Of a DNA stretch of 64,000 nt, positions 6,431-24,564 are shown in pieces. The translations under genes and the position numbers were made by a program. The stretch is taken from contig JAMPAO010000005.1 of the NCBI GenBank assembly GCA_023667165.1, positions 19-64,018 on the forward strand, written 5' to 3'. The stretch's first letter is position 1; each line of letters begins with the position of its first letter. The stretch is from Ruminococcus sp. Lineage in GTDB: Bacteria > Bacillota > Clostridia > Oscillospirales > Ruminococcaceae. The notes below the pieces were generated by a model. The model worked only from the letters and a program-made list of their open reading frames with translations. It made no database searches and was not told the DNA's origin.

Positions 6431-6458
6431 GGGCGGGAAGCCGCATGGGAATATAACC

Positions 6459-6701: not shown

Positions 6702-6794
6702 AAAATATAATATGTTTTATACCGGTATGAAAGGTCGGAAAAAGTCTTTCGCTGCGGCTTAAAATGCTGACAATACCAAAAAACGGGTGGAAAA

Positions 6795-7721
6795 ATGGTC
6801 GATATTCTGATGGCGGTTTACAATGGGGAAAGGTTTTTGAGGGAGCAGATAGAATCGGTCGTTTCTCAGAGCTATACGGAATGGCGGCTGTTTATTTGCG
6901 ACGACGGGTCGTCGGACGGGTCGGCGGATATTGCGGAGGAGTACGCGGAAAGATATCCCGGGAAGATATTTGCGGCTGTAAACGGTGTGCCTGCGAGGTC
7001 TGCATGCGGTAATTTTATGGGAATGCTGAGAAAAAGTTCGGCGGAATATGTGATGTTCTGCGATCAGGATGATGTGTGGCATGAGGATAAAATTGCGGTG
7101 ACTTTGGATAAAATGCGCGAGATTGAGGAAGGAAACCCGAAGAAACCCGTGCTGATACACACCGATCTGGAGATAGTCGACAGGGAGCTTAATGTTACGG
7201 CGGGGTCGTTTATGAGATATCAAGGACTTAAAGCCCGGTACAAAAGCCTTAACCGGCTGCTTTGCCAGAATAATATCACGGGGTGCACGGTGATGGTGAA
7301 CAGGGCGCTGGCGGATATTGTGAAAGACGCTCCTGCCGAATATATGCTCATGCATGACTGGTGGGCGGGCCTGGCGGCGGCGGCTTTCGGAGAAATAGGG
7401 TTCGTGGACCGCGCCACGGTCAAGTACCGGCAGCATGGAGGAAATCAGCTTGGGGCGGTGAATAACAGGAGTTTGGCGGGGATTTTCAGGCTGATAAGCG
7501 ACAAGAGGCGGTCTAAGCGGCGGCTTGAGGTCACTTATGAGCAGGGGAAAAGATTTTACGAATACTACGGAGAGCGGCTCGAAGCCGACGCGAGGCGCGT
7601 TCTTGAAATATATGCCGATATACCCTCTCACTGCAAGGCGATAAGGGCGGCAAGGCTTATAAGGTACGGCTTTTTGAAACAGAATTTTTTGGCGGCGGCG
7701 GGGGAGCTGGTGTTTTGCTGA
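6795..7721 (+). CDS. GT2 rhamnosyltransferase (RgpB/GacC/WbbL-like)
   Basis: 308 aa. VDILMAVYNGERFLREQIESVVSQSYTEWRLFICDDGSSDGS ... FCDQDDVWHEDKI closely resembles streptococcal RgpB-type rhamnosyltransferases as I remember them. It sits with rfbBCD. Confidence 0.75.
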   Translation: MVDILMAVYNGERFLREQIESVVSQSYTEWRLFICDDGSSDGSADIAEEYAERYPGKIFAAVNGVPARSACGNFMGMLRKSSAEYVMFCDQDDVWHEDKIAVTLDKMREIEEGNPKKPVLIHTDLEIVDRELNVTAGSFMRYQGLKARYKSLNRLLCQNNITGCTVMVNRALADIVKDAPAEYMLMHDWWAGLAAAAFGEIGFVDRATVKYRQHGGNQLGAVNNRSLAGIFRLISDKRRSKRRLEVTYEQGKRFYEYYGERLEADARRVLEIYADIPSHCKAIRAARLIRYGFLKQNFLAAAGELVFC

Positions 7722-7877
7722 TAAAGCTGAATATTGGGGCGGAAAACGCCCGTATATTGTTTCTTGACGCCAAAGAATATGAAATATAGGCAATATGTGC
7801 GCAAAGGCGTCAGCCGCTTTTTAGTGCAGTGCTGCCTATAGAGGATACGATCAGATAAGTAAGGAGAATGAAGATAA

Positions 7878-8760
7878 ATGAATGCTTTTAAGAAAGCGAC
7901 AATTGAAATATCAAGCGGTTGCAATGCAAAATGCACATGGTGTACAACGGGAAAGAAAAATCGCAGCGGGTGCAGTGACAAGACGGAATTTATGTCTGCT
8001 GAGTCCTTTGAAAAAGGTCTTTTTTATATGATGGAAAAGGGGATAATTGACAAAAATACAGAGATCGAGCTGTATAACTGGGGAGAACCCTTTTTGAATC
8101 CGGAGATAAATACAATCTGCGGTATAATAACAAAATATGGATTTCAATATCATTTATCTACCAATGCGTCTGTTTACAGAGAAATAAATGCGGAATATTT
8201 AACAAATCTATCCGGCTTCAGAGTATCATTGTCGGGATTTTCAAAAGAAAGCTATTCTATTACCCATTCATTGAATTTTACAAAGGTAATGGATAATATT
8301 GTAAAATTTTGTGATATGCTTAAAGCTGCCAATAAGCAGAATGTAATGGATATTACTTTTTTGGTATATAAATTTAATTGTCATGAAATCAATAAGGCAA
8401 AAGATCATTTCAATAATTTGGGAATAAAATTTACTCCCCGTTTGGCATACTACAATGATTTTGAACAGTTTCAGGCTTTTTTGAACAAATCTATGCCTGA
8501 TGAAATGAAAAAAATGTCGGAAGAACAGATCTTTGAGGACCTTTTAAGCCAAAGAGCGTCAGAGGCGCCGGCGCATTTTCGCTGCCCTCAGGATGATTTT
8601 ATTGTATTGTCCTATGACTGGAAAATAGTGCCCTGCTGCCGATTGACAGAAAATGAAACTTTAGGCAATTTATTTGATATGGATTTGGATCAGATCAAGG
8701 AGAAAAAAAATCAGATTGCCCAGTGTGCTGAATGCAAGCAGTCGAACCAGCATTATATTG
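7878..8760 (+). other. radical SAM + SPASM/twitch-like domain of the megaprotein
   Basis: CX3CX2C at nt 7920-7943, a GGEP-like motif (WGEPFLNP), and C-terminal cysteines FRCPQ...VPCCRL...QCAECKQ (nt ~8578-8740). Confidence 0.7.
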
Positions 8761-11700
8761 TACATTCACCGACTGTATTTACTTATTCCATAGATCCTAA
8801 GAATTCGAAGGACAAGCAGATTAAGGTAGTTGCCAAGCTGTATCCGGACTATAACGGAGAAGGATATTCGGAGGATACGGCTGTTGCTTTTGGAAATTAT
8901 GACGCTGACAGTGAAAGCTTTTACGGTGAACATACTTTTGAAAATGCTCCGGAAAGGATACGTTTTGATCCTGTAGGCGGATCGTTTTGTGTTGCGGAGA
9001 ATGTAAGGGTTTCGACAGAAAAAGGAAAGGCAGATATAACTTGTCACAATGGAATAAAGTATGGGGATTTTTATGTTTTTGATCATTTTGATTCCCAGCT
9101 TATATTTGAAAATAAAAATAAATCGCGTAAATTCCGTATTAAAGCGGATATTTATCCTTTTAACAGCTTGTCTGCAATTGCTTTTATGGATAAGGTAACG
9201 GCGGATAACAAGGATCTGCTTGAAAATAACAGGAAGCTGGAAAGCGAAAAGGCAGGACTTATGTCCGACAAGAAGAGGCTGGAGGGAGAAAAAGCAGGAC
9301 TTATGTCCGACAAGAAGAGGCTGGAGGGAGAAAAAGCAGGACTTATGTCCGACAAGAAGAGGCTGGAGAGCAAGGTTTTCGAGCTTAACTGCGTCATTGG
9401 GTCTAATACAAAGAAATATAATGATTTCAAATATGAAAGCGCAAAGAAAAATGAACAGTTGGAGAAAGAGATCGAAAATAAGAACAGGGAAATTGAAAAT
9501 AAGATCAAAGAGCTTGAAAGCGCAAATGCGGTTATTCGCAGCGACAGGGAAACTGCCCGCAGTATTCTTTCGGCAGGCAGCCGGACAGGCGGCAGGTATG
9601 CCGCTGCGTGTGCGCTGAAGCGCGGCTTTTTTGCTGCAAGAACAAATGCTGCCGCTATAAAAATCATAAGGAAAAACGGCGGCTTTGATGTGCTTTATTA
9701 TTGCAGAAAATACGGTGATATTGCCGAAAGCGGCATGGATCCGCTGCTCCATTATATATGGTATGGGGGATATGAGGGAAGAAATCCCTCCGAAAGCTTT
9801 GATTCCGCAAAATATCTTGCTGCTTATGAGGATGTGAAAAAAAGCGGGGTCAATCCCTTTGCGCATTATGTTGTTTTTGGGAAGGATGAGGGAAGGAAGG
9901 CAATAGGGGTAAATCTGCCGAAAAAAAATACTGCGGTAAGGCCGGAGAAAAATGTTAAACCCATAGAAAAAAGCAAGACGGTTAATTCTCCGAAGACACT
10001 GAAAAACAATGAATCTTCTGTAGCTATAAATGATCATCAATCGGAATTCAGCTACAGAGAGTTTGGCTATACTTTTTTTTCAAAAAGACTAAAGGCACTG
10101 AAAGAAAAAGTAATCACGATCATTGTTCCGGTGTACAATGCATATGAGGAAACGGCTGAGTGCATAGAATATGTGCTTAAAAATACTGATTTTCCTTACA
10201 GGCTTATGCTTATCAACGATTGCAGCACCGATGAAAGGATAAGTCCGTTACTTGATAAATATAAACAAAACGAGAATGTGACTGTCATTGAAAATGAAGA
10301 AAATTTCGGTTTTGTAAGAACGGTAAATTACGGGATAACTCACAGTGAAAATGATGTGGTATTCCTTAACAGTGATACCAAGGTCACCAAGGGCTGGCTG
10401 CGAAAACTTGCCGTGGCTGCGTATCATAAAGGCAATATTGCAACGGTAACGCCTTTTTCCAACGCTGCAGGAGCGTTCAGTGTACCTGTTATGGGTGAAA
10501 ATAAAGATATACCCGCAGAATTTGATCTTGAAACAATGTCCAGCGTTACAGAGCGCTGCTCAAAGCTTGACTATGTTGACGTGCCTACAGGTAATGGATT
10601 TTGTATGTATGTAACAAGGAAAGCTATTGATTCGGTAGGTATTCTTGATTATGAGGCGTTTTCGAGAGGATACGGCGAGGAAAATGATTTCTGCATGAGA
10701 GCTAAAAATGCCGGATTTATAAATATCATTGCCGATGATACGTATATCTATCACAAAAGAAGCGCTTCATTCAAAGATGAAAAACAGAAGCTTATTACAG
10801 AAAACAGAAAGATACTGGATGCAAGATATCCCGAATACAGCAGTGAGATAACTAAATTTTCTGTGTCCCCGGAGCTTATTGCAAACAGAAACCGGATAAA
10901 GGATATTGTTGATAATAAGCAGTCAGCTCCTTTTTTAAGAAAGAGGCTGCTGTATGTTTTGCATGAGGGTACCGGAGGAACCGTGAAAACCAATGAGGAT
11001 CTTATGCATTTTGCGGAGAAGAATAATTATGAAGTTTTCATGCTTACTTCAAATACAAGTCAAATGAAGCTTTATTCGGAGTCAGACGGCAGTTTAAATC
11101 TTCTTCATACATGGAAGTTGGAAACAAAATGGGATATATCAAATTTTTATGTTCCCGAATATGCGGACATTTATTTCGATGTTCTCTGTAATTTGCACAT
11201 AGAGCTTGTTCATATCAGACATCTTTTTAAGCATAGCTTTGATATTGTGGACATTGCCGATGTACTGCGCATACCGGTCATACTGTCTTTTCATGATTTT
11301 TATTTTATTTGCCCCAGTATAAATTTAGTGAACAGTGACAAAAAATATTGCAATGCTGAGTGCAGAGAGTGCGATGAAAAATGCGTTACTCCGTCGGTTT
11401 ACGTTAAGGTGCGGTATCCTTTGAATGAATGGACCAAAGAAATCTGGAGAGCAGAGCTTTCAAAATTATATACAAAGATCAAAGCGTTTGTTACTACTTC
11501 CGAATATACGAAGAAAACATATTTAAAGATCTATCCGGAGCTTTCGGACAGATTTTATGTTATTGAACACGGAAGAAACTTTGATTATGACAGACATTAC
11601 AGAGGTGGGATCCCGAGTGAGGATAAGATCGTCATTCTTCTGCCGGGAAATATAAATATGAATAAGGGCGGCGATTATATTAACAAGCTTATCGATATTG

Positions 11701-13223
11701 ATAAGGAAAAAAAGCTGGAGTTTCACTGTATGGGGGCATTGTCAACAGAGTTGCCCAAGGAGTTCAAGGATAAGATCATATATCACGGGAAGTATGTTAG
11801 GGAGGATTTCGTGCGGTTGGTGAATGAGATAGCTCCCGCTTATATCGGTATTTTTTCCATATGGCCTGAAACCTATTGTCATGTGCTTACAGAAGCGTGG
11901 AGCTGCGGAGTTCCTTGTATTGTATCTGACATAGGTACACTTAAGGAGCGTGCAGACGCTCAAGGGGGATGCATTAAAGCCGATCTTGACGATGTGGAAA
12001 AAACATACAAGGAAATCATAGATATTTCCTTTTCGGAGAAGTATTTTGAATTATGTGAACAGGTTCAAAAGGCTGATATTCATTCAATAGAACGAATGGG
12101 AACAGAGTATCTTGCATTGTATGATAAAATAATTAATAAATGTTTTTTAAATGATATCGAAAGGGGCACAATGATATGGGTAAATAACTATATCAGAACA
12201 GGAGAATATCACGGTTCATCGTATATTCGTGTAGTATCGCCTATTATGAATAATCCGGTAATTCGGCGAAATTTAACGGTTGCTGAAGCTCGCCATGCTT
12301 CGGATATTCCGTTTGAAAGCGAGGTAGTATCATATATAATTGTTCTTGTTCAGAGGGAAAAGATTGATAATGATTCTGTTTTACTTCTCCAAGAAAAGGT
12401 AAAAGAATATCCAAGTCTTAAAATCATTTTTGAAATAGATGATAATCTGATAAGTATTAATGAGAATCATCCCCATTATTCCATGTATGAAAATAATATT
12501 AATAAGATAAGGAGTATCTCAAAAATAGCTTCTAAGATTATTACTACCAGTGAAGTGATCTCAAAAGGGTTAAATACTTCCGTAGCGGTAATACCTAACT
12601 ATATAGACAACAGGCTATGGAACATAACGGATAAAAATACAGTTTTTTCAAAAAAGAAATTTGTGAAAATTCTTTATTTTGGCACATCGTCTCACTGTCG
12701 TGATTTGGCAATATTGAAAGAGCCTATCGAAATGCTTAACAATAGATTGAAAAATGAAGACATAAGAGCGGTTCTTGTTGTTGTCGGATGTTCAAATGAA
12801 CAAGAAGATTGGTTCGATGTTCTTAAAGTGCCGAATGATTCAAAGACATATCCCGAATTTGTAAAGTGGTTGAAAGAGGTGAATGATTTTGATATCGGTG
12901 TTGCCCCCTTGGATCTTTCAATAGATTTAAATTATGCTAAAAGTCCGCTTAAATATTTTGAATATGCCGCTCTTGGGTTGCCGTGCGTTTGTACGGCTAT
13001 AAAGCCGTATAATGAGGCGGTGATTAACGGTCAAACGGGATTTCTTATAAAAGACAATGCGGCTGACGAATGGGCGGATGCTATATATCAGCTTGTTATG
13101 AGTGCAGAGCTTAGAGAAAAAATAGTTTCAAATGCCAAATCGGATATTGAAAAAAATCATATGCTTTCCGATCATTACAGCGAAATAGCAGATATATTTT
13201 TAAACATGGAGGAAAAATCATGA
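7878..13223 (+). CDS. 1781-aa multidomain protein: radical SAM/SPASM domain + beta-rich region + helical tandem-repeat/coiled-coil linker + HYxxxGxxEGR repeats + GT2 + two GT-B (GT4/GT1-like) domains
   Basis: A single uninterrupted ORF. CX3CX2C (CNAKCTWC, nt 7920-7943), GEPFLNPE, and a Cys-rich SPASM-like tail (CPQDD..PCCRL..CAECK). GT2: [31 protein letters not shown] 1: [26 protein letters not shown] 2: [26 protein letters not shown]. Confidence 0.8.
9204..9570 (+). other. charged helical / coiled-coil-like linker of the megaprotein
   Basis: [14 protein letters not shown]...(3x14-aa repeat)...[42 protein letters not shown]. Leu/Ile recur at 7-residue spacing. Confidence 0.55.
9237..9370 (+). 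repeat. in-frame 42-bp tandem repeat, 3 full units plus a partial fourth
   Basis: Units at 9237-9278, 9279-9320 and 9321-9362, then a partial copy CTGGAGAG. Units 2 and 3 are identical; unit 1 differs only in its first ~15 nt. Encodes ([14 protein letters not shown])x3. Confidence 0.95.
10110..10800 (+). other. GT2 (GT-A fold) domain of the megaprotein
   Basis: [47 protein letters not shown] (DxD-like), [10 protein letters not shown]. Confidence 0.75.
10940..12140 (+). other. first GT-B (GT4-like) domain of the megaprotein
   Basis: [21 protein letters not shown], the E-x7-E-like region [27 protein letters not shown], and the Cys-rich insert [25 protein letters not shown]. Confidence 0.6.
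12171..13220 (+). other. second GT-B (GT1/GT4-like) domain of the megaprotein
   Basis: [64 protein letters not shown]. Confidence 0.55.
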
Positions 13224-14458
13224 AAATTGCCATTGCCGGTACCGGCTATGTAGGACTGTCATTGGCTGTGCTTCTGGCGCAGCATAATACTGTGACAGCG
13301 GTGGATATAATCCCCGAAAAGGTGGATATGATAAACAACGGAAAATCTCCTATACAGGATGAATATATTGAAAAATATCTGGCTGAAAAAAAACTGGATC
13401 TTACTGCCGCTCTCGACGCTGCAAAGGCTTACGGAAACGCGGAGATCGTGGTTATTGCCGCACCGACAAATTATGATCCCGCAAAAAATTTTTTTGATAC
13501 TTCTGCCGTTGAAAACGTTATCGGGACAGTTATTAAATGCAATCCCAACGCGTTGATGGTGATCAAATCTACTGTTCCGGTGGGATTTACCGAGAAAATA
13601 CGCAAAGTTACCGGATCGGAAAACATTTTATTCAGTCCCGAATTTTTGCGGGAAGGCAAGGCTCTTTATGATAATTTGTATCCTTCCCGAATAATTGTGG
13701 GAACCGATATGAAGAATGAAAATCTTATAAAAGCCGCCTGCACGTTTGCCGGACTTTTGCGTCAAGGTGCGCTGAAGGATAATATAGAAACATTATATAT
13801 GGGTTTCACCGAGGCGGAGGCGGTCAAGCTTTTTTCCAACACCTATCTTGCGCTGCGAGTGTCATATTTTAATGAGCTTGATACTTATGCGGAAACAAAA
13901 GGCCTCAGCACAAAGGATATTATCAACGGAGTGTGCCTTGATCCAAGGATCGGCAGTCATTATAATAATCCTTCTTTTGGATACGGCGGCTATTGCCTGC
14001 CCAAGGATACAAAGCAGCTTCTGGCAAATTACGAGAATATTCCTCAGAATATGATGTCAGCCATTGTGGAGTCCAACAGGACAAGAAAGGATTTCATTGC
14101 CGACAGAATCCTTGCGAAAGCGGGATATTACGCTTACAACGAAAAAAGCGAGTACGACAGCAGCCGTGAAAAGCAGGTCACTGTGGGTGTTTATCGGCTG
14201 ACGATGAAGTCAAACAGCGATAATTTCAGGCAAAGCTCCATTCAAGGCGTTATGAAGAGGATAAAGGGAAAAGGGGCTAAGGTGATAATATACGAGCCGT
14301 CGTTAAAGGATGGAGATACCTTTTTCGGCAGTCTTGTGGTAAACGATCCGGCGGCATTTAAGGCGCAAAGCGACGCTATTATTGCCAACAGATATGACAA
14401 GTGCCTTGACGATGTGAGGGAAAAGGTTTACACAAGGGATATTTTTGAAAGAGATTAG
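13220..14458 (+). CDS. ugd: UDP-glucose 6-dehydrogenase
   Basis: [20 protein letters not shown] Rossmann motif; catalytic [10 protein letters not shown]; 412 aa. ATGA overlap with the preceding stop. Confidence 0.9.
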
Positions 14459-14550
14459 GCGCAAAAGGATGAATTTCAGCGTATGTGTATTCACATACTT
14501 GCAAAGCCTATAAACATATAAAACAGTCAGATCATGGGAGCGTATCATAT

Positions 14551-15471
14551 ATGAATATATTGATAACCGGTGCAAAGGGTCAACTGGGTCGGGAGCTTGT
14601 CAGATGCTTTGAAAGAAGGTTCACCGAAATAGGCGTCCCCGAGGCGCTCAAAGCGGAAAACAAGATCACAGCCGCCGATGTGGATGAGTTGGATATTACG
14701 GATATTAGAGCTGTAAAGGATTTTTTTGCCGGCAAGGGCCTTGAGGCGGTCATAAACTGTGCGGCGTTCACCAATGTGGACGGCTGCGAAAGCAATTTTG
14801 ATGCCGCTTTCAGAGTTAATGCCATTGGAGCGAGAAACCTTGCCATAGCTTGTAACGAGCATAATGCAAAGCTCATTCATGTATCCACCGACTATGTTTT
14901 TGCGGGGGATGGGAATATTCCCAAAAGAGAATGCGATCTGCCCGCTCCAAAAAGCGCCTACGGCAGCACCAAGCTGTTGGGGGAACAGTATGTGAGGGAA
15001 TTTTGCAGTAAATATTTTATCGTCCGCACGGCATGGCTTTACGGATATGAGGGGAAGAATTTCGTTAAGACCATGATAAACGCGGGGCGCAGGCTCGGCA
15101 AGCTGACGGTAGTTGACGATCAGCGGGGAAACCCCACTAATGCCGCCGACTTAGCGCACCATCTTATAAAGCTTCTTAACACGGAGGAATATGGCGTTTA
15201 TCACGCCACGGGAGCGGGTGAATGCTCCTGGTGCGAGTTTGCAAGGGAGATAATCAAGCTGGCGGGTATAGAGGCAGATGTTGCGGCGTGCAGCTCGGAG
15301 GAATATGCGGCGGCGCACCCGGAGGCTGCCGAACGTCCCAAATACTCGGCTTTGGATAATTGTATGCTGCGGGCGGCGGTTGGGGACGAGTTCCGGACGT
15401 GGCAGGATGCTCTCAAAGTCTTTATGGATAATTACCGGAAAACAAATGAATTTGAGCGGCTTGGAAAATAA
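14551..15471 (+). CDS. rfbD: dTDP-4-dehydrorhamnose reductase
   Basis: MNILITGAKGQLGRELV, STDYVF, YGSTKLLGE. GGGAG RBS 10 nt upstream of ATG 14551. The track start at 14485 was rejected. Confidence 0.88.
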   Translation: MNILITGAKGQLGRELVRCFERRFTEIGVPEALKAENKITAADVDELDITDIRAVKDFFAGKGLEAVINCAAFTNVDGCESNFDAAFRVNAIGARNLAIACNEHNAKLIHVSTDYVFAGDGNIPKRECDLPAPKSAYGSTKLLGEQYVREFCSKYFIVRTAWLYGYEGKNFVKTMINAGRRLGKLTVVDDQRGNPTNAADLAHHLIKLLNTEEYGVYHATGAGECSWCEFAREIIKLAGIEADVAACSSEEYAAAHPEAAERPKYSALDNCMLRAAVGDEFRTWQDALKVFMDNYRKTNEFERLGK

Positions 15472-15537
15472 GTTGATCGGAAGCGCTGAATACGCTCTGC
15501 GATTTAACTGTCGAATTATGGCTTACGGAGGTAAAAT

Positions 15538-16557
15538 ATGACTGTTATAGTAACCGGCGGAGCAGGCTTTATAGGCTCCAATTTCATTTTTCATATGATG
15601 AAAAAATATCCGGAGTACCGGATAATTTGTCTTGACTGCCTTACCTATGCGGGCAATCTTTCCACACTGAAAAGCGTTATGGACAAACCCAATTTCCGTT
15701 TTGTCAAAGCGTCCGTTACCGACCGTCAGGCGGCGGACAGACTTTTTGACGAGGAAAAGCCGGACATTGTCGTCAATTTTGCCGCTGAAAGCCATGTTGA
15801 CCGCTCTATCGAAAATCCTTCGGTTTTTTTGGAAACCAACATAATGGGTACGCAGGTAATGATGGACGCCTGCCGCAAGCACGGCGTAAAGCGCTATCAT
15901 CAAGTTTCCACGGACGAGGTGTACGGAGATCTTCCTCTTGACAGACCCGATCTGTTTTTTACGGAGGAAACGCCCATTCACACATCAAGTCCTTACAGCG
16001 CCTCAAAAGCGAGCGCCGATCTGCTTGTGATGGCGTATCACAGGACTTTCGGACTGCCTGCGACGATCTCCAGATGTTCCAATAACTACGGTCCTTACCA
16101 TTTCCCCGAAAAGCTGATACCTCTTATGATCGCCAACGCTCTTGCCGACAAGCCTCTGCCCGTTTACGGCAAAGGGGAGAATGTCAGAGACTGGCTGTAT
16201 GTGAAGGATCACTGCAAGGCTATCGACCTTATTATCCACAACGGCAAGGAGGGAGAGATCTACAATATCGGCGGTCACAACGAAATGGCCAACATCGACA
16301 TTGTTAAGATCATTCTTAAGGAGCTGGGAAAGCCGGAGAGCCTTATAACCTATGTTGCCGACCGAAAGGGACACGATATGCGTTATGCTATCGATCCTGC
16401 CAAGATACACCGTGAATTGGGCTGGCTGCCGGAAACCAAATTCGCAGACGGTATTAAAACTACCATTAAATGGTATCTCGACAATCGGGAATGGTGGGAA
16501 GAGATCATTTCCGGCGAATACAGGAATTATTACGAAAGAATGTACGGTAACAGGTGA
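15538..16557 (+). CDS. rfbB: dTDP-glucose 4,6-dehydratase
   Basis: VIVTGGAGFIGSNF, HQVSTDEVYG, YSASKASADLLV; 339 aa. Confidence 0.92.
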   Translation: MTVIVTGGAGFIGSNFIFHMMKKYPEYRIICLDCLTYAGNLSTLKSVMDKPNFRFVKASVTDRQAADRLFDEEKPDIVVNFAAESHVDRSIENPSVFLETNIMGTQVMMDACRKHGVKRYHQVSTDEVYGDLPLDRPDLFFTEETPIHTSSPYSASKASADLLVMAYHRTFGLPATISRCSNNYGPYHFPEKLIPLMIANALADKPLPVYGKGENVRDWLYVKDHCKAIDLIIHNGKEGEIYNIGGHNEMANIDIVKIILKELGKPESLITYVADRKGHDMRYAIDPAKIHRELGWLPETKFADGIKTTIKWYLDNREWWEEIISGEYRNYYERMYGNR

Positions 16558-16644
16558 AATAAGCGGAAACGGCATTTCGGAAAGTCAAATATGATTTAAA
16601 TGGCTTTGGAATATTTCGTCTTTATCATCGGAGGTTGATTTTTT

Positions 16645-17214
16645 ATGGGCAAATTTAATTTTACGGAAACGGGAATAAAGGATCTGTATGTGATAGAACC
16701 TACGGTTTACGGCGACAGCCGCGGATATTTCATGGAAACGTATAATGCGGAGTTTGAGCCGTACGTAAAGCACTTGGACGGCTCGCCTGCAAGCTTTGTG
16801 CAGGATAATCAGTCAAAATCAAAAAAAGGCGTGCTTAGGGGACTGCATTTTCAGAAGAACAACCCTCAGGGAAAGCTGGTTCGGTGCCTTGAGGGAGAGG
16901 TTTTTGATGTGGCGGTGGATCTGCGGGGGGACAGTGAGACCTACGGTAAATGGTACGGAGCGGTGCTGAGCGCGGAGAACAAGAAGATGTTCTATGTACC
17001 CGAGGGGTTCGCGCATGGATTTTCCGTGCTGACCGATACCGCGACTTTTTCCTACAAATGCACGCGGTACTATGATCCAAGCGACGAGGGGGGTATCATG
17101 TGGAACGATCCCGATATCGGTGTGGAATGGAAGCTGTCTCCGGAGGGAGAGGTCTGCCTGAGCGAGAAGGATATGAAAAACCCCGCATTTAAGGAGCTGG
17201 GATTTAAATTCTGA
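16645..17214 (+). CDS. rfbC: dTDP-4-dehydrorhamnose 3,5-epimerase
   Basis: DSRGYFMETY, GVLRGLHFQ, VPEGFAHGF; 189 aa. Confidence 0.92.
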   Translation: MGKFNFTETGIKDLYVIEPTVYGDSRGYFMETYNAEFEPYVKHLDGSPASFVQDNQSKSKKGVLRGLHFQKNNPQGKLVRCLEGEVFDVAVDLRGDSETYGKWYGAVLSAENKKMFYVPEGFAHGFSVLTDTATFSYKCTRYYDPSDEGGIMWNDPDIGVEWKLSPEGEVCLSEKDMKNPAFKELGFKF

Positions 17215-17260: not shown

Positions 17261-18037
17261 ATGAGTAAATATTTTCGGGTTTTTCTGAAATATAAAAATC
17301 TTATATTGTATCTTGCGAAAACTCAGATCTCATTAAAATACAGAAAATCCTATCTGGGACTGCTGTGGAGTCTTCTGAACCCGCTGCTTACCATGGTGAT
17401 CCTTACTATGGTTTTTTCGGGAATGTTCAAGAACAATATAGAAAATTTTCCCATATATCTGATGTGCGGCAGGCTGATATTCGAGTACAATTCGGAGGCG
17501 ACAAAAACCGCCATGAATGCGGTGATCTCCAATTCGTCGCTGATAAAGAAAATATATGTGCCTAAATATGTTTTCCCGCTGTCCTCTTCAATTGCGGCGC
17601 TGGTGAATATGTTCTTTTCGCTGATAGCGCTGCTTATCGTAATGATCGCCACAAAACTTACCTTAAAGTGGACTATGCTGTTTATATGGCTTCCAATGCT
17701 GTATGTGTTCATATTTTCCACGGGACTGGGACTTATACTGGCATCGGCTAACGTGTTTTTCAGAGATACAAAGCATCTTTACGGAGTATTTATTACACTT
17801 TGGATGTATCTTACTCCGCTGTTTTATCCCATTGAATCGGTATCCGAAAGGACGCGGAGCGTCATTGAGATAAATCCGCTGTATCATTTTATCAAAATGT
17901 TCAGAGGAATGATGCTCGACGGCGTGCTGCCGACCTTTCGGGAAAATGTTATATGCCTTTCGCTAGGTCTTGTGATGGTGACAATAGGTCTTATAAGCTT
18001 TAAGAAATGCCAAGATAAGTTTATACTGCATATCTGA
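17261..18037 (+). CDS. ABC-2 type polysaccharide/teichoic-acid export permease (Wzm/TagG/RgpC-like)
   Basis: 258 aa, about 6 TM. SYLGLLWSLLNPLL signature. Directly followed by the cognate ATPase. Confidence 0.85.
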   Translation: MSKYFRVFLKYKNLILYLAKTQISLKYRKSYLGLLWSLLNPLLTMVILTMVFSGMFKNNIENFPIYLMCGRLIFEYNSEATKTAMNAVISNSSLIKKIYVPKYVFPLSSSIAALVNMFFSLIALLIVMIATKLTLKWTMLFIWLPMLYVFIFSTGLGLILASANVFFRDTKHLYGVFITLWMYLTPLFYPIESVSERTRSVIEINPLYHFIKMFRGMMLDGVLPTFRENVICLSLGLVMVTIGLISFKKCQDKFILHI

Positions 18038-18046
18038 GGAGATAAT

Positions 18047-18802
18047 ATGAATACAGATAACATTTCCCCTGAGAGGGAAACGGTCATAACCGTGGACAAT
18101 ATTTCCATGAAATTCAATATGAGCAAGGAAAAGATCGATTCTCTAAAGGAATATTTCATAAAGGTCATGAAAAAAGAGCTGATGTACAAGGAGTTCACGG
18201 CTCTCAACAGCATTTCCTTTGAGGTGAAGAAAGGCGAAGTGCTGGGTTTGGTGGGACTTAACGGCTCGGGAAAAAGCACGCTGCTGAAAATAATTGCCGG
18301 AGTCATGAAACCCACGGAGGGTAAGGTCACGGTAAAGGGTTCTGTTGCGCCTCTTATAGAGGTGGGAGCGGGGTTCAACGGAAATCTTTCCGGTCGGGAG
18401 AATATTTTCCTCAACGGCTATCTTTTGGGTTTTTCCAAGGAATATATAAACGAACACATAGAGGAAATAATTGATTTTGCGGAGCTGGGAGAATTTATTG
18501 ACGTTCCAGTGAAAAATTATTCTTCGGGCATGAAATCACGGTTGGGTTTTGCTATTGCGACTGCTGTGAAGCCGCAGATACTGATAGTCGACGAGGTTCT
18601 GGCGGTGGGCGACTTCAAATTTCAGCAGAAGTGCCACGACCGCATAGAACAAATGATGTCGGACAATACAACTGTGCTGTTTGTTTCCCATTCTATCGAT
18701 CAGGTCAAATCCCTTTGTACAAGGTGTATATGGCTGGAAAAAGGTAGAATGGTTGAGGACGGGGAATGCATGGAGATTTGCAGAAAGTATATGAACAAAT
18801 GA
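18047..18802 (+). CDS. ABC transporter ATP-binding protein (Wzt/TagH/RgpD-like), short form without a C-terminal extension
   Basis: Walker A GLNGSGKST, signature YSSGMKSRL, Walker B ILIVDEVLAVGD. Only 251 aa. Confidence 0.88.
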   Translation: MNTDNISPERETVITVDNISMKFNMSKEKIDSLKEYFIKVMKKELMYKEFTALNSISFEVKKGEVLGLVGLNGSGKSTLLKIIAGVMKPTEGKVTVKGSVAPLIEVGAGFNGNLSGRENIFLNGYLLGFSKEYINEHIEEIIDFAELGEFIDVPVKNYSSGMKSRLGFAIATAVKPQILIVDEVLAVGDFKFQQKCHDRIEQMMSDNTTVLFVSHSIDQVKSLCTRCIWLEKGRMVEDGECMEICRKYMNK

Positions 18803-18813
18803 AAGGATAAACA

Positions 18814-20886
18814 ATGAAAGAGAGAATTGCTGTTTTTGCGTACAGCGGCAGTTCCGAAGAAGCTGACGAATATGCCTTGTTTCTCTTGAAAGCTGCGAGA
18901 GAGAGCTTTTCATATATCATAACCTCTGTAAGCAAGGATTGCCCTGACAGCGCTTCGGCAGAAATAGGAGAAATATCGGATAAGGTGCTGGTTTCCGAAA
19001 ATAAAGCGCCGTTTTCCGCGTATTCCGAGGGAATAAGATATATAAAAGAAAACGGTCTTGATAAAAAATATGCTGAAGCTGTTCTGTTGGATGATTTTTT
19101 TTCCAAGCCGATTTGCAGCTTTGAAGAGCTGTTCGGAAAAATAGACGGATTTTCGGATAGTCCGGATTTTTGGAGCATATCCGGAGCGGCGGAAGCTTCG
19201 CCGAACGGCGTGGAGCATTTGCAGCCGCATTTTATCGCGGTATCGAAAAAAATGCTGGCATCATCCGAATTTGCCGATTTTTTGGATAATGCGAAGGGTG
19301 ATTTTTTCGGTCATTTTTCCGGCATCGGCTTTAAGCCGGCGGTCATTGAAGCGGATAACTTAGCGGATATCAGAAAAAATAACAGATCTGCGGCGCAGGC
19401 TGCCGCCGTAATCGGGAAATCAAGGCTTTTTAACCGCGGGCAGTATATAAGCAAGTATCCCGAGGCGTTAAGATACGGTCTTCCTCCCGAATATCACTAT
19501 CTCAACATAGGTTGGCGCAAGGGATTCGATCCTTCGGATGAATTTTCTTCAACAGAATATTTGCGGCTCAACAGCGACGTAAAGCAAAGCGGTATATGTC
19601 CTTTGCTGCATTTTGAGCGTTACGGCAAAAGAGAACGCAGACCCTATAAAACCGAAAACGGAAGCATGGTACGGGCAAATCGTCCGCTGTTTGACCTGAA
19701 ATTTATCGGCGGCAAAGCCAAAAACCTTCTGCGGCAGGTAAAATATTATTTTACTTTGAAAGTAGATCCCAACAAGATCCTTTTCCATGCTTTTCAGAAC
19801 GACTACACCTGCAATCCCAAATATATCTGCGAGGAGCTTCTCAGACAGGATCTGCCCTTCGAGATAGTGTGGATAGCCGATAAAAGCGGAAAGAAGGACG
19901 CCAATTTTCCAAGTCGTGTAAGACTTGTAAAATCGGGAACTCCGCAGGCTATGGCTGAGATCATGACGTCAAAAATAATCATTGACAACGGAGTGCTGCC
20001 GTTCAGAAATAAATTGTTTAAGAAAAAGGAACAAATATCCATAAACACATGGCACGGTTCGCTGGGTTTTAAGCGGCTTGACGGAAATCAACTGAAAAAA
20101 ACACGGATGACTTCAATGTTATATAACCAAATCAACGATTATATCATTTCCGACAGCGACTTCGAGGATAATGTTTTCAGAACCTCCAATTGGCAGAAAA
20201 CCGAATTTATCAAATGCGGACATCCGAGAAACGATATACTGATATCCTGCGGCAGGGAGAAAGCCGAGCTTATCAAAGCAAAGGTTTACAGTGCCTGCGG
20301 TATTCCCGAAAATCAAAGGGCGGTACTGTACGCGCCTACTTTCAGGGAAAAAATCGTCGATACCGAGCCGTCGGGACAAAAATCGGAAGAACTTGACCTC
20401 GATATTTTATGCGGCGCTCTGGAGGAGAAATTCGGCGGAGAATGGTGCGTTCTTATGCGCGCCCACTTCGTCAACGCCAAATCGGAAAGCTCCGTTTTTG
20501 CCGAGCGTCACCGGATCTGCAACGCCACGGATTATCCCGACATACAGGAGCTTATGATCGCGGCGGACGCGGGAGTTACCGACTATTCAAGCTGGATACT
20601 CGATTATATGTATACCCGCAAGCCTGCCTTTCTCTACACTCCCGATTACGAGGACTACGATATGCAGAGAGGCTTCTATTACCCTCTTTCCGAGTCCCCT
20701 TTCCCCGCGGCAAAGAACAATAAGGAGCTTTCGCGGGTGATAAAGGAATTTGACGGCGGCGAATACAGCAGGAAGATCGATGAATTCCTTAAAAGCAAGG
20801 GCAGCCGCGAGGACGGCTGCGGAAGCAAGGCGGCAGCAGAGGCGATAAAGAAGCTTATGAATTACAAGGAGGACAAGAGCCAATGA
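18814..20886 (+). CDS. CDP-alditol/glycerol phosphotransferase (TagF/TagB family) with an N-terminal accessory domain
   Basis: 690 aa. C-terminal TagF-family motifs NTWHGSLGFKR, LYAPTFRE, TDYSSWILDY. The N-terminal ~200 aa contain HLQPHFIAVSKK (tentatively RgpF-like). HYxxxG/HFERYGKRERR repeats at nt 19428-19641. Confidence 0.75.
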   Translation: MKERIAVFAYSGSSEEADEYALFLLKAARESFSYIITSVSKDCPDSASAEIGEISDKVLVSENKAPFSAYSEGIRYIKENGLDKKYAEAVLLDDFFSKPICSFEELFGKIDGFSDSPDFWSISGAAEASPNGVEHLQPHFIAVSKKMLASSEFADFLDNAKGDFFGHFSGIGFKPAVIEADNLADIRKNNRSAAQAAAVIGKSRLFNRGQYISKYPEALRYGLPPEYHYLNIGWRKGFDPSDEFSSTEYLRLNSDVKQSGICPLLHFERYGKRERRPYKTENGSMVRANRPLFDLKFIGGKAKNLLRQVKYYFTLKVDPNKILFHAFQNDYTCNPKYICEELLRQDLPFEIVWIADKSGKKDANFPSRVRLVKSGTPQAMAEIMTSKIIIDNGVLPFRNKLFKKKEQISINTWHGSLGFKRLDGNQLKKTRMTSMLYNQINDYIISDSDFEDNVFRTSNWQKTEFIKCGHPRNDILISCGREKAELIKAKVYSACGIPENQRAVLYAPTFREKIVDTEPSGQKSEELDLDILCGALEEKFGGEWCVLMRAHFVNAKSESSVFAERHRICNATDYPDIQELMIAADAGVTDYSSWILDYMYTRKPAFLYTPDYEDYDMQRGFYYPLSESPFPAAKNNKELSRVIKEFDGGEYSRKIDEFLKSKGSREDGCGSKAAAEAIKKLMNYKEDKSQ

Positions 20887-21602
20887 ACGCGGCAGTTATT
20901 TTCGCGGGAGGAGTAGGACAGCGTATGCGGTTGGCTGCCGTTCCGAAGCAGTTTCTGGAGCTTCACGGAAAGCCGATAATCATATATACCTTGGAGCAGT
21001 TCGACAATCACCCCGATATAGACGGGATAGTTATCGCTTGTCTTGAATCCCATATAGCATACCTTGAAAAGCTGATCAAGAAATTCGGTATAGAAAAGGT
21101 AAAAGCGGTAGTTCCCGGAGGCGCTACGGGGCAGGAGTCCATATTCAACGGCATTGAAAAGGCTTCCCGGCTGTTTCCGGAGGATACGGTGCTGCTCATT
21201 CACGACGCTGTGCGTCCTCTTATCACTGCGGAGCTTATAACGGAAAATATCGGATCGGTGAAAAGCTGCGGCAGCGGAGTTACCGTTTCTCCCGCCATTG
21301 AAACCATCACGGTAAAGGGAGAATTCGAGGGCGAGGTGGGCGAGATAATCACCCGCGACCGCTGTCAGCTTGCCAAAGCGCCGCAGAGCTTTATTCTGAA
21401 AGATATCCTGGACGCCCATCTCAAGGCGAGAGCGGAGGGCAAAAACGATTTTATAGACTCCGCCTGTCTTATGAGGCATTACGGATATAAGCTGCACACA
21501 GTGGAGGGCAGCACTGACAATATAAAAATAACCACGCCCACGGATTTTTACACATTCAGGGCAATTGTTGAGGCGCGGGAAAATTCTCAGATATTCGGTT
21601 AA
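20883..21602 (+). CDS. IspD/TarI-family cytidylyltransferase (likely ribitol-5-phosphate cytidylyltransferase)
   Basis: AAVIFAGGVGQRMRLAAVPKQFLELHGKPII; 239 aa. ATGA overlap with the TagF-like gene. Confidence 0.75.
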   Translation: MNAAVIFAGGVGQRMRLAAVPKQFLELHGKPIIIYTLEQFDNHPDIDGIVIACLESHIAYLEKLIKKFGIEKVKAVVPGGATGQESIFNGIEKASRLFPEDTVLLIHDAVRPLITAELITENIGSVKSCGSGVTVSPAIETITVKGEFEGEVGEIITRDRCQLAKAPQSFILKDILDAHLKARAEGKNDFIDSACLMRHYGYKLHTVEGSTDNIKITTPTDFYTFRAIVEARENSQIFG

Positions 21603-21615
21603 GGAGCGTATATAA

Positions 21616-22662
21616 ATGAATTCTGTTCTCAGAGAGGATATTTTGTCGGTCATAGGCGATACCGGAATACCTTGGGATATGCTTGAGGGGAAAACGGTTT
21701 TTATTACGGGAGCTGCGGGACTTATAGGAAGCGTACTGGCAAAATCTCTGTTAAGCCTTGAAAACCGCAGTGTGAAGGTTGTCGCCATGGCAAGAAGCAG
21801 GGAAAAGGCGGAAAGAGTATTTGCCGATTTTTCGGGGAACGACAGGCTTGAGATCTGCGAGGGAGATATCAACAGCGGGATATCCTATCCGGGCGGCGTT
21901 CATTATATTATTCACGGGGCAAGCGTAACGTCAAGCAAAATGATGGCGGAACGCCCTGTTGACGTTATAATGACCGCTGTGGGAGGCACGGCAAACGTTT
22001 TGGAATTTGCGCGCAAAAAAAACGCCGAAAGGACGATATTCTTATCCTCAATGGAGATATACGGCATTCCCGGGACCGATGAAAAAATATACGAGGACAG
22101 CTACAAATACCTTGATCATATGAACGTAAGAAGCAGCTATCCCGAAAGCAAAAGACTTGCGGAAACACTGTGCGTTTCCTATGCAAAGCAGTACGGTCTT
22201 GCGGTAGGTATCGTTCGTCTTACCCAGACCTTCGGCGCGGGAGCGGAGTTCGGCGACGGCAGAGCCTTTGCGGATTTTGCCCGCAATGCGGTAACGGGTA
22301 AGAATATCATTCTCCGCACCAAGGGAGAAACAAAAAGAAATTACCTCTATACAGCCGACGCCGCGAGAGCCGTGCTTTATGTTATGCTCAAGGGCGCCTG
22401 CGGAGAGGCGTACAACGCGGCAAACGAAAATACCTACTGCACCGTTTATCGGATGGCGCAGACTGCCGCCGAGCTGGGGAAAGGCTGCTGTGTGGAGATA
22501 CAGGAAAGCGAGATATCCGAATTCGGCTACGCTCCGCCGCTTAAAATGAACCTTTCAGCGGAGAAGCTGCGGAGTCTGGGCTGGGAAGCAAAGTATGACC
22601 TTAAAGAAATGTTTGAAAGAATGATGAGATATTGGAAAGAGGAGGGAGCGTATGAAGCCTAA
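21616..22662 (+). CDS. extended SDR (NAD-dependent epimerase/dehydratase/reductase family)
   Basis: VFITGAAGLIGSVLA (GxxGxxG), YPESKRLAE (YxxxK); 348 aa. Confidence 0.75.
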   Translation: MNSVLREDILSVIGDTGIPWDMLEGKTVFITGAAGLIGSVLAKSLLSLENRSVKVVAMARSREKAERVFADFSGNDRLEICEGDINSGISYPGGVHYIIHGASVTSSKMMAERPVDVIMTAVGGTANVLEFARKKNAERTIFLSSMEIYGIPGTDEKIYEDSYKYLDHMNVRSSYPESKRLAETLCVSYAKQYGLAVGIVRLTQTFGAGAEFGDGRAFADFARNAVTGKNIILRTKGETKRNYLYTADAARAVLYVMLKGACGEAYNAANENTYCTVYRMAQTAAELGKGCCVEIQESEISEFGYAPPLKMNLSAEKLRSLGWEAKYDLKEMFERMMRYWKEEGAYEA

Positions 22663-24421
22663 GGTTTCCGTATTAATGGCTGTATTTAACGGCGGCGAGG
22701 GGCTGCGGGACTCGATAGGCTCTCTCTGCCATCAGACCCTGAGGGAGATAGAAATAGTATGCGTCGACGACTGTTCCACGGACAATTCCGCGCAGATAAT
22801 ACGTGAGCTGGCGGAAAACGATCCCAGAATAAAGCTCGTTTCCTCGGAGGAAAATATGGGAACGGTATATTCCAGAAAAGCGGGCGTGAAAAACGCTTCG
22901 GGAGAGTATCTGATGTTCATGGATCAGGACGATGAATACGAGCTTTTCGCAGCCGAGGAGCTTTACGCCATGGCAAAGGAAAAGAACGCGGATATAGTTC
23001 ATTTCCGTTCCCGCGTAATAGCCGTTCCTCCCACTACGGAAAATCAGCGGAAATGGCAGGAGGATTTCATGGCGCCCTATGACGGCTTTCTTTACGGCAA
23101 TGACGTTTTCGACGGCTGTTTCGGGAAAAATCCCCATGAGGAAAAGACCTGGTACAAGTACACATGGAATTTGTGGAATAAGATCTACAGGACGGACGTC
23201 TGCAAAAAAGCCATGGAGAAATGCACCGACGAATACATTATAAACGGCGACGATATGTATGTTTATATGCTCATATCCGACTGCGCCGAGTCCTATTACG
23301 GGGACGCAAAGGGAAAATTTTACCATATATACAGCTTAGGATCGGGACTTATGGGCAATCACAAGCTCACGCTGCGGCGGTTTTACACCATTGTCAGGCG
23401 GGTAACGGGACTGGAAAGCGAAAAAAAGCTTTTTTCCGAAATGGGCGAACGCTACCGCGAGGCTTACGAGATAGACCTGCGAAGAGGACTTCAGGGCATA
23501 GTGGAACGGTGGTATCTCCGTCTGGAGCCGATGAGCTACGGAAACGGATATGACATGATGCTGTCATATGCGGATCCTGCGGATATTATTGCGGCGTTTG
23601 AAAAGCATCTTCGGGTGGGGAATGTAAAGCTGTTTAATGCGGCAAAAAATTCCGTCAGTATGCAGATCACCCATAAATATACCAAGCAGGCGGCTGTTTA
23701 CGCGGATAAAAATACCGATTTGAACGCGCTGGAAAACGCGGTAAAGGTATGGCGGTCAAAAGGGTATAAAATTATTTATATAACCGAGCATGACGGGGAG
23801 GCGGAGCTGCCCTTTAAGGAGATCACGCCGCTGCACAGGCTTGCTCCCGAAAAAAAGGACGCTTTGTATTATGAATATCCGTACAGGGAGCGGCTGAGAA
23901 GTCTGAAAAATATACTGGAGATGAACAATATCGACTGTCTGGTGTATTTTACGAATATACGGCACAATTATATTTACGATCTGCTGCTGACGAAGTCCCT
24001 GGGGAGAAAGTTCACCGTATATGCAGCCGATTATCCGAAATTCAAAAAGGAACGCGCTCCGGCAAAATTCCGCGAATATACGGATACCCTTGAATGCAGC
24101 GACGGAGTTATGCTGCCGGCAGGCTGTGAAAACGTTTCTGCCAATGCATTCAAATACAGCCGTGAATTAGACTTTGGCGATATTTTCGTTTTGGAGCCTC
24201 CGTCAAACGCCATAGCGGCGGAGCTGGAAAGCATCATTGAGGACGACGAGTTCAAGGCAATGTGCGAAAAACTGGCTTTTAGGAGAATGTACAAAAAAAG
24301 CGGAGCTAAAGACAGGCTCAAGCTCATCGCAAAAAAAATACTCCGTGTTTTCGGAGTTCACAAGGATTATTACTGCTCCGACCACAACAGCTATTTAATG
24401 CTGAAGAAATTGGAGGGATAA
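22652..24421 (+). CDS. GT2 glycosyltransferase with a ~330-aa C-terminal extension
   Basis: VSVLMAVFNGGEGLRDSIGSLCHQTLREIEIVCVDDCSTDNS, FMDQDDE; 589 aa. Confidence 0.75.
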   Translation: MKPKVSVLMAVFNGGEGLRDSIGSLCHQTLREIEIVCVDDCSTDNSAQIIRELAENDPRIKLVSSEENMGTVYSRKAGVKNASGEYLMFMDQDDEYELFAAEELYAMAKEKNADIVHFRSRVIAVPPTTENQRKWQEDFMAPYDGFLYGNDVFDGCFGKNPHEEKTWYKYTWNLWNKIYRTDVCKKAMEKCTDEYIINGDDMYVYMLISDCAESYYGDAKGKFYHIYSLGSGLMGNHKLTLRRFYTIVRRVTGLESEKKLFSEMGERYREAYEIDLRRGLQGIVERWYLRLEPMSYGNGYDMMLSYADPADIIAAFEKHLRVGNVKLFNAAKNSVSMQITHKYTKQAAVYADKNTDLNALENAVKVWRSKGYKIIYITEHDGEAELPFKEITPLHRLAPEKKDALYYEYPYRERLRSLKNILEMNNIDCLVYFTNIRHNYIYDLLLTKSLGRKFTVYAADYPKFKKERAPAKFREYTDTLECSDGVMLPAGCENVSANAFKYSRELDFGDIFVLEPPSNAIAAELESIIEDDEFKAMCEKLAFRRMYKKSGAKDRLKLIAKKILRVFGVHKDYYCSDHNSYLMLKKLEG

Positions 24422-24501
24422 AAGGCAATCTGCAAAGTCGGTTGTGAGGGAGAGGGGAATACATGCAGTGCGGAAGCATTATTTAAAAATGTGAAATCTA
24501 T

Positions 24502-24530
24502 TTGACATTTTGTGATGTTAATGATATAAT
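24502..24530 (+). promoter_or_regulatory. consensus sigma-A promoter candidate inside the cluster
   Basis: TTGACA (24502-24507), 17-nt spacer, TATAAT (24525-24530), 35 nt upstream of the 24565 start. Confidence 0.6.
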
Positions 24531-24564
24531 AATGATTAGGCTCACAGTAAAAAAAGGAGAAAAA

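Follow-up and report, generated by a model that had tools for sequence, protein, structure and literature searches.

A radical SAM domain fused to glycosyltransferases in a Ruminococcus cell-wall polysaccharide locus may tailor the growing glycan

Introduction

Only a few termination chemistries are known in glycan assembly that depends on ATP-binding cassette (ABC) transporters, namely methyl, methyl-phosphate and Kdo (3-deoxy-D-manno-octulosonic acid) caps. Here we describe a 1781-amino acid (aa) protein encoded in a stretch of 64,000 nucleotides (nt) from Ruminococcus sp. (contig JAMPAO010000005.1, positions 19 to 64,018; hereafter the window), in which an N-terminal radical S-adenosylmethionine (SAM) domain, the head, is joined through a helical spacer to three glycosyltransferase domains. 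A radical SAM head in the place of a methyltransferase suggests an undescribed, radical way of finishing or tailoring cell-wall polymers.

Several proteins of comparable layout have been characterised. ORF6 of Klebsiella O7 consists of a methyltransferase-kinase, an immunoglobulin (Ig)-like 'carbohydrate-binding module' (CBM), a coiled coil and two modules of glycosyltransferase family 2 (GT2), and experiments showed that it ends an O antigen containing rhamnose by adding a methyl-phosphate cap (PMC11231755). WbbB of Raoultella/Klebsiella O12 and WbdD of Escherichia coli O9a embody the principle of a coiled-coil ruler (PMC11231755); the length of the ruler sets the chain length, and the polymerase activity is membrane-proximal. 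WsaE of Geobacillus stearothermophilus NRS 2004/3a, which caps an S-layer rhamnan, has an N-terminal 2-O-methyltransferase and two rhamnosyltransferase domains (PMC2943079).

The window protein resembles O7 ORF6 in that one polypeptide starts with a tailoring head, continues with a small beta-rich domain and a coiled coil, and ends in glycosyltransferase modules, and the two loci have in common a rhamnose polymer and Wzm/Wzt genes accompanied by rml genes (in the window, wzm and wzt with rmlBCD and ugd adjacent). However, the head of ORF6 is a methyltransferase-kinase and that of the window protein a radical SAM domain, ORF6 has two GT2 modules whereas the window protein has one GT2 and two family 4 (GT4) modules, and the Wzt of the window has no CBM; the likeness to ORF6 is one of layout. 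As in WbbB and WbdD, the catalytic domain is set off from the polymerase by a coiled coil, recognised here by its heptad and charge features, but the WbbB head is a GT99 beta-Kdo transferase and that of WbdD a kinase plus a methyltransferase, and in both systems the cap has to be read by a CBM of Wzt, a module that the window lacks. With WsaE, again compared by layout, the window protein shares the Gram-positive host, an ABC-transporter-dependent rhamnan and a SAM-using N-terminal tailoring domain fused to polymerising glycosyltransferases. The WsaE head is a class-I 2-O-methyltransferase, whereas neither Pfam nor NCBIfam found a methyltransferase domain in the window protein; it is the methyltransferase-headed relatives described below (P0043, P0048 and P0068-type proteins, with Methyltransf_24) that resemble the WsaE class.

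The head itself has, like BtrN, DesII, BlsE and anSME/CteB, a partial TIM-barrel radical SAM core and a C-terminal, Cys-ligated auxiliary cluster, but these enzymes are only 12-19% identical to it. None of these enzymes is known to share a polypeptide or a locus with polysaccharide polymerases and ABC exporters.

Results and Discussion

One reading frame from the radical SAM domain to the glycosyltransferases

The open reading frame (ORF) at 7878..13223 (+ strand) runs through 1781 codons without interruption. In order, it encodes the radical SAM head, a beta module, a coiled coil, a basic helix, two HY repeats, a GT2 module and two GT-B modules (Pfam, ORF reading and the counterparts in loci L004 and L009). 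This single frame and its domain order had been described in an earlier, sequence-only reading of the same DNA, and both were borne out. A Shine-Dalgarno sequence, AAGGAG (7861..7866, + strand), can be read from the sequence 11 nt 5' of the ATG at 7878. The corresponding public NCBI protein (P0042, 100% identical), named simply 'glycosyltransferase', is 1177 aa long. The head and the ruler are missing from the public annotation because this protein starts at an internal GTG (codon 605), so that the 1.8 kb encoding the head, the beta module and the coiled coil (window 7878-9689) are absent from the protein collection. This annotation, together with the finding that no protein identical to the head exists in a collection of 5.8 billion proteins, speaks for an artefact or a decaying gene, that is, an assembly or sequencing join, or a relic head with translation from the internal GTG.

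Two counterparts from other samples argue against such an origin. P0047 (1739 aa, locus L004) is 47% identical over its full length and has the same domain order; its genes are arranged syntenically as GT2, RmlD, fusion, Ugd, Wzm, Wzt and DUF2142. P0162 (1275 aa, locus L009) is approximately 96% identical over aa 1-675 and continues with an unrelated GT2+GT2 cassette. Comparison of the window with L009 by blastn showed that window positions 2747-9902 and 13206-16218 match at 95-98% DNA identity, while window 9903-13205 is replaced in L009 (7102-8928) by 1.8 kb of unrelated sequence, the reading frame being kept in both. On the left, the swapped segment starts where the second HY repeat ends, and on the right it stops 18 nt short of the stop codon. 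When the window and L009 alleles are compared, the ratio of non-synonymous to synonymous substitution rates (dN/dS) amounts to 0.10 in the radical SAM domain and 0.12 in the beta module; it reaches 0.35 in the coiled coil and is 0.08 in the HY repeats. Moreover, both junctions (radical SAM domain to beta module, and beta module through coiled coil to glycosyltransferases) occur separately in homologues, the cluster ligands and the GGE motif of the head are conserved, and the 5' ATG is preceded by a good Shine-Dalgarno sequence. The artefact hypothesis was rejected because three assemblies agree and the gene is under purifying selection; we consider it very improbable, and a real modular fusion, made as a single polypeptide, almost certain. 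The three assemblies also contradict a stop or frameshift between nt 8760 and 10100, which the sequence-only reading had considered.

The swapped segment, which comprises a linker, the GT2 module and two GT-B modules (9903..13205, + strand; blastn of the window against L009 and Pfam of P0162), constitutes an exchangeable polymerase cassette. The GT2 (GT-A) module covers aa ~746-1000 (10113..10877, + strand; Pfam Glycos_transf_2 at aa 747-857). The first GT-B module, GT4-like, covers aa ~1020-1425 (10935..12152, + strand; Pfam Glyco_transf_4 at aa 1033-1234 and an NCBIfam match at aa 1276-1417) and the second, also GT4-like, aa ~1440-1781 (12195..13220, + strand; Glycos_transf_1 at aa 1598-1755 and a BshA-like match at aa 1538-1762). 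Glycos_transf_1 / Glyco_trans_1_4 of Pfam was matched in two stretches, the one at aa 1598-1755 being the best. One GT2 and two GT-B domains had been expected from the letters alone, in agreement with these matches. The GT2-GT4-GT4 cassette is, judging by its domains, of the polymerase type present in terminator-ruler-polymerase proteins.

The radical SAM head

The head, consisting of the radical SAM domain and a twitch-like tail, spans aa 1-305 (7878..8792, + strand) and is supported by Pfam, conservation, an AlphaFold2 model, Foldseek and dN/dS. Radical_SAM of Pfam (PF04055) matched aa 9-173 with 32.0 bits at a cutoff of 29.5. The CX3CX2C motif CNAKCTWC (C15-x3-C19-x2-C22) is conserved in an alignment of 39 homologues, in which each of its Cys residues is kept in at least 90% of the sequences. 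The GEPFLNP motif is conserved as well, and G69-E70-P71, S94, N96, S117, Y126, Y164 and N167 are invariant. With the GGE motif and all cluster ligands kept, the catalytic motifs are all intact, in agreement with the complete-looking core of the sequence-only reading.

The same reading had proposed a SPASM- or twitch-like Cys tail, and the twitch part of this proposal stands. Four C-terminal Cys residues are invariant across the 39 homologues (C236-x16-C253...C283-x2-C286), a pattern that agrees with the abbreviated C-terminal domain of twitch enzymes, in which three to four Cys ligate one auxiliary [4Fe-4S] cluster. The seven-Cys SPASM motif (CX9-15GX4C...CX2CX5CX3C...C, for two auxiliary clusters) is absent, since only these four C-terminal Cys are invariant; PF13186 did not match the window protein, but a few relatives do match it. 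The tail is thus predicted to hold one auxiliary cluster, fully ligated as in twitch enzymes, with a Cys spacing that we take to resemble the twitch pattern of BtrN. A fully ligated auxiliary cluster would favour a redox role, for example a BtrN-like dehydrogenation.

In the AlphaFold2 model (predicted local distance difference test, pLDDT, 92), aa 1-300 form a radical SAM barrel, aa 306-313 a disordered linker and aa 319-428 an all-beta sandwich; a long helix begins at aa 431. Foldseek placed the head model in the SPASM/twitch group with probability 1.0 for CteB, anSME, SkfB, BtrN, DesII, BlsE and MoaA; SuiB and EpeE were also among the matches, as was viperin. At 12-19% identity no single one of these matches stands out, so the search, which the sequence-only reading had suggested for finding the closest subfamily, yielded the group and not a subfamily. 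Sequence and profile searches of the PDB with the head agree with Foldseek in retrieving generic SPASM/twitch neighbours, BtrN being among the profile matches. NCBIfam assigned no specific radical SAM family to the window protein, the best model being TIGR04317 (62 bits, cutoff 380), and no sub-function of the head could be assigned from any of these searches.

Exchange of heads on a common scaffold

The best matches to the glycosyltransferase part are P0043, P0044 and P0046, which are 56-63% identical from aa ~305-319 to the end. The heads of these three proteins and of P0048 are class-I methyltransferases (Methyltransf_24) in the position of the radical SAM domain. They continue in the same way as the window protein, with the beta module, a coiled coil and the same glycosyltransferases; the alignment of P0048, which is more distant, covers the beta module and resumes at aa 688. 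P0043 is found in the same GT2-fusion-Ugd locus as the window protein. Among the 120 best relatives of the glycosyltransferase part, an N-terminal Methyltransf_24 or Sulfotransfer_3 domain is common and a radical SAM domain occurs once. The analogy with WbdD and WbbB drawn in the sequence-only reading holds, as the nearest relatives have an O-methyltransferase in the head position within the same scaffold and locus.

The beta module, a beta sandwich at aa 319-432 (8832..9173, + strand; AlphaFold2 pLDDT 94.5 when modelled alone), bears the signature KLYxDxGxGFSE...IRFDP...NG...DPQI and comprises about 115 aa instead of the approximately 150 aa estimated earlier. Its partner domains were surveyed in the loci retrieved in this analysis. 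According to its profile, class-I methyltransferases that stand alone in L011 (E 1e-22) and L006 (E 4e-13) also end in this module, and the slot between rmlB and rmlC is occupied by a beta-module methyltransferase in L011 and by a radical SAM gene in L002. Since the module occurs in both kinds of protein and these use the same slots, we take it to be an adaptor that the tailoring enzymes of such pathways have in common, whether radical SAM or methyltransferase, and the two kinds of unit to be exchanged as cassettes, in fused as well as free forms. A search of the 5.8-billion-protein index with the profile gave one match; such a short, divergent profile suits a word index poorly.

The spacer at aa 433-571 (9174..9590, + strand) contains no Pro, is 42% charged and shows heptads, its periodicity being exceeded in 2 of 500 shuffles. 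It weakly matches Pfam families of the coiled-coil type (YwqH-like at aa 451-551). Among homologues the linker measures 138 to 162 aa. The tandem 14-aa repeats that had been noted in the charged helical region correspond to a 42-nt (two-heptad) array of 2.9 copies with 98% identity (9246..9368, + strand). The sister alleles differ in copy number, with three copies in the window and two in L009, and other heptad-multiple repeats occur in homologues, for example the 7-aa ENSGLKA in P0043. These differences suggest that the spacer is length-variable.

Behind the spacer follows a basic, possibly amphipathic helix (aa 572-600; 9591..9677, + strand), which is conserved in P0043, P0044, P0045, P0046 and P0162 and may dock to the membrane or to a partner. 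The next region (aa 601-675; 9678..9902, + strand), the end of which is the left boundary of the cassette swap, contains the two HYxxxGxxEGRxP repeats already recognised by eye (aa 621-675). Their motif, DP(L/V)xH(Y/F)xxxGxxEGRxP, is kept in the methyltransferase-headed relatives, and the region has no meaningful Pfam or PDB match.

A large family of radical SAM proteins in glycan loci

Most homologues of aa 1-440 stand alone and measure 300-600 aa. Many carry the beta module, sometimes twice, and several, P0011 and P0018 among them, end in coiled coils. In all contexts retrieved, which represent six distinct loci (L001, L002 with L003 as a second contig, L005, L006 with L007 as a second contig, L008 and L012), the closest stand-alone homologues directly adjoin Wzm/Wzt, rml genes and multi-domain glycosyltransferases. 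Homologues with the radical SAM domain as a separate neighbouring gene, for which the sequence-only reading had proposed to look, thus exist. In L008 the stop codon of the radical SAM gene overlaps the start of the next gene, whose product is a multi-domain glycosyltransferase of 985 aa.

When 1.84 billion representatives were searched with the profile, 558 clusters were obtained at E<=1e-30, the best 150 of which were inspected for further fusions. The order radical SAM, beta module, coiled coil and GT2/GT2 was found in P0214 and, judging by length and match position, probably in P0215; the same order ending in GT2/GT4 was found in P0226 and P0230. Other arrangements are radical SAM followed by WbsX (P0171), GT2 followed by radical SAM (P0227), and glycosyltransferase and methyltransferase (with or without TPR) followed by radical SAM (P0242 and P0251). 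The sequence-only reading was aware of no radical SAM enzyme in such a role or fused to glycosyltransferases. No description of such a fusion was found, but the fusion recurs with several glycosyltransferase types and is not unique (P0047, P0162, P0214, P0215, P0226 and P0230).

In GTDB species genomes we found 519 relatives, distributed over Firmicutes, Proteobacteria, Planctomycetota, Nitrospirae, Omnitrophota, Verrucomicrobia and one archaeon. Neighbourhoods were counted in 79 loci. Nine of these have a Wzt gene within 10 kb, and seven of the nine Wzt proteins carry Wzt_C above the Pfam threshold; the Wzt_C-bearing proteins are 408-664 aa long and belong to other phyla. A class-I methyltransferase gene lies within 3 kb, and mostly adjacent, in 24 of the 79 loci, RMNT_CmcI rhamnosyl O-methyltransferases being among them. 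The Wzt_C-bearing and methyltransferase neighbours therefore link these proteins with O-methylation and with glycans that are capped and exported by ABC transporters. This large family, found in many phyla, is uncharacterised and unannotated.

Some features of these loci were observed in passing. Tandem radical SAM paralogues (~310 and 354 aa) occur in proteobacterial metagenome-assembled genomes (L015 1989-3925, L018 2384-4374, L019 9983-11973 and L020 7226-9165); their flanking genes encode an RMNT_CmcI rhamnosyl O-methyltransferase and a Methyltransf_24 protein, and Wzm and a Wzt with Wzt_C are encoded directly downstream. In several phyla, a radical SAM gene is followed immediately by a gene for a Methyltransf_11-type methyltransferase of ~245 aa. 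This conserved pair was seen in L024, L025, L026, L028, L030, L032, L038, L041, L047 and L049; in L025 it is followed by a short-chain dehydrogenase/reductase (SDR) dehydratase/epimerase and a DegT aminotransferase, and L026 and L028 look alike by ORF sizes and rmlB-like matches. Unusually long Wzm proteins of 443-479 aa are encoded in L002 (12425-13756), L005 (7847-9244), L006 (3074-4492), L008 (7805-9244) and L012 (12419-13753). Their additional parts, absent from the 258-aa Wzm of the window, are an N-terminal transmembrane helix, a beta-rich domain of ~160 aa, which by topology would be extracytoplasmic, and a second transmembrane helix. BLAST detected no similarity between the beta module and this extension.

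Proposed role of the head and points against it

Our best explanation, which we hold with even confidence for and against, is that the ORF encodes a protein of the terminator-ruler-polymerase type whose radical SAM domain modifies the growing glycan, probably at its non-reducing end. That the head is a glycan-tailoring domain placed in the terminator position of a ruler-polymerase protein is probable, whereas a chain-terminating or end-modifying role has an even chance or slightly less. By positional equivalence with the methyltransferase heads, the head would add a non-reducing terminal cap that stops polymerisation. In the proposed mechanism, the 5'-deoxyadenosyl radical would abstract hydrogen from one sugar residue of the polymer while this is lipid-linked. 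The target would most probably be the residue at the non-reducing end, which, once modified, could no longer be extended or would mark the chain. Candidate chemistries are epimerisation, dehydration and, by analogy with BtrN, oxidation that yields a keto sugar. The coiled coil would set the chain length needed before the head reaches the end, and the beta module would bring the head to its place, either on the glycan or in the assembly complex.

The transporter is the first point that weighs against this proposal. All characterised terminated systems have a Wzt CBM (PMC11231755). The window Wzt, as the sequence-only reading had correctly noted, is short (251 aa) and has ABC_tran as its sole domain without a C-terminal CBM (Wzt_C), and in the window and all related Firmicutes loci Wzt has 238-251 aa and no CBM; the seven of nine Wzt_C-bearing neighbours in other phyla soften this objection. 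A short CBM-less Wzt is the format of the Klebsiella O2a type, in which export is independent of a cap (PMC11231755), and it fits an alternative in which the head decorates internal backbone residues (by epimerisation, oxidation or C-methylation in each repeat) and the coiled coil and the beta module merely tether it. The abundance of other decoration genes in the locus (TagF-like, TarI-like and DUF2142) is in line with this alternative as well. It does not account for the location of the head at the far end of a spacer that varies by heptad multiples, a hallmark of ruler-type terminators, or for the equivalence of this position with that of the methyltransferase heads of the WsaE and O7 ORF6 type, and family members elsewhere are associated with Wzt_C-bearing transporters. 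We regard internal decoration as unlikely.

Distant family members, which consist of the radical SAM domain only, often adjoin SDR dehydratase, DegT aminotransferase and RmlC-like genes in loci with no ABC transporter, and may act on nucleotide sugars. If this applied to the window protein, the head would modify a nucleotide-sugar precursor (a dTDP- or UDP-sugar, as do DesII and BlsE) and the fusion would serve channelling or co-regulation only. Weak sequence and fold similarity to DesII and BlsE, the location of the radical SAM gene between rmlB and rmlC in L002 and L012, and ugd directly downstream of all three fused genes (window, L004 and L009) agree with such a function. However, it is not obvious why an enzyme acting on precursors should need a coiled coil of 140 aa together with a beta adaptor that is shared with methyltransferases of the polymer-capping type; the same head and ruler serve two unrelated polymerase cassettes; and in L011 the rmlB-X-rmlC slot holds a beta-module methyltransferase. 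Action on a precursor therefore appears to us a little less likely still than internal decoration.

Further points against a terminating head concern the parts of the protein. Foldseek found nothing significant for the beta module in the PDB (the best match was CBM29, E 0.02, template modelling score 0.30), so its description as a CBM would follow from the analogy with O7 ORF6 only, and hhalign gave a probability of 0.2% for its relationship to Wzt_C. The coiled coil is predicted from sequence features. Radical SAM and methyltransferase genes often co-occur instead of replacing each other; because of this frequent co-occurrence, the concept of equivalent heads may be too simple, and the two enzymes may cooperate rather than substitute for one another. 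No curated family (Pfam sub-family or NCBIfam) was found for these radical SAM proteins, and no description of a radical SAM enzyme as a glycan terminator or tailor was found in the literature, in which subscription journals were thinly covered. The functions discussed here for the family members are predictions.

The head as a terminator, if this proposal is correct, would make a mechanistically different cap, and the polymer terminus would be a new class of radical SAM substrates. It is possible, though we would sooner doubt it, that the twitch-type family constitutes a new class of glycan-capping or chain-terminating enzymes and provides the first radical chemistry on the end of a lipid-linked polysaccharide. 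The cap would then be of a kind so far unseen (a keto, deoxy, epimerised or C-alkylated sugar), sometimes methylated further by a partner O-methyltransferase; Wzt_C modules would read the radical-made cap in Gram-negatives, and gut Firmicutes would swap radical caps against methyl caps as cassettes, thereby varying their surface glycans. Natural variants make these predictions testable: sister strains share the head on different polymerases, relatives share the polymerase with a methyltransferase head, and a difference of one 14-aa repeat between sister strains provides ruler variants. That gut Ruminococcus shuffles the modules for its surface glycans like cassettes is of relevance to recognition by phages and by the immune system.

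Gene neighbourhood of the fusion

The genes of the glycan locus are all on one strand, in the order GT2, fusion, Ugd, RmlD, RmlB, RmlC, Wzm and Wzt, followed by decoration genes. The stand-alone GT2 gene upstream of the fusion (6795..7721, + strand) is syntenic in L004, L009 and L010. The precursor genes for UDP-glucose dehydrogenase, RmlD, RmlB and RmlC, identified by domain search, lie at 13220..17214 (+ strand), and those for the ABC exporter at 17261..18802 (+ strand; Wzm, 258 aa, 17261-18037; Wzt, 18047-18802). The locus encodes an ABC-transporter-dependent pathway for a rhamnose-containing cell-wall polysaccharide, and glucuronic acid is probably also present in the polymer.

The decoration and assembly genes of the same locus (18814..26583, + strand) encode an RgpF-N/TagF-like glycerophosphotransferase, a TarI-like cytidylyltransferase, an SDR, a GT2 and a DUF2142 membrane protein. 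In the first of these proteins (690 aa, window 18814-20886), an RgpF-like N-terminal region is joined to a TagF-type CDP-glycerol glycerophosphotransferase domain, and the TarI-like and SDR genes follow, which points to a decoration of the same polymer with polyol phosphate.

A second block of glycan genes follows on the same strand (window 26694-45217). It encodes a GT2, a GDP-mannose 4,6-dehydratase, an epimerase/reductase, a DegT aminotransferase and a ManC-like guanylyltransferase; an MptE-like protein, a Wzx-type flippase, two proteins resembling CMP-sugar cytidylyltransferases and an HMGL-like protein; and a TylF-like O-methyltransferase, a HAD protein, a GT2, an acyltransferase and an asparagine synthase. 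Just upstream of the glycan locus, two ORFs (237 aa, window 2781-3494, and 954 aa, window 3566-6430) have no Pfam or NCBIfam match and are found at the same position in L009 with 98% DNA identity. Finally, a 470-aa ORF at window 78-1490 matches only the C-terminal two-thirds of restriction-modification enzymes of the MmeI family, so that it comprises the last part of the methyltransferase domain as well as the target-recognition and C-terminal domains, and looks like a truncated or split type IIL enzyme.

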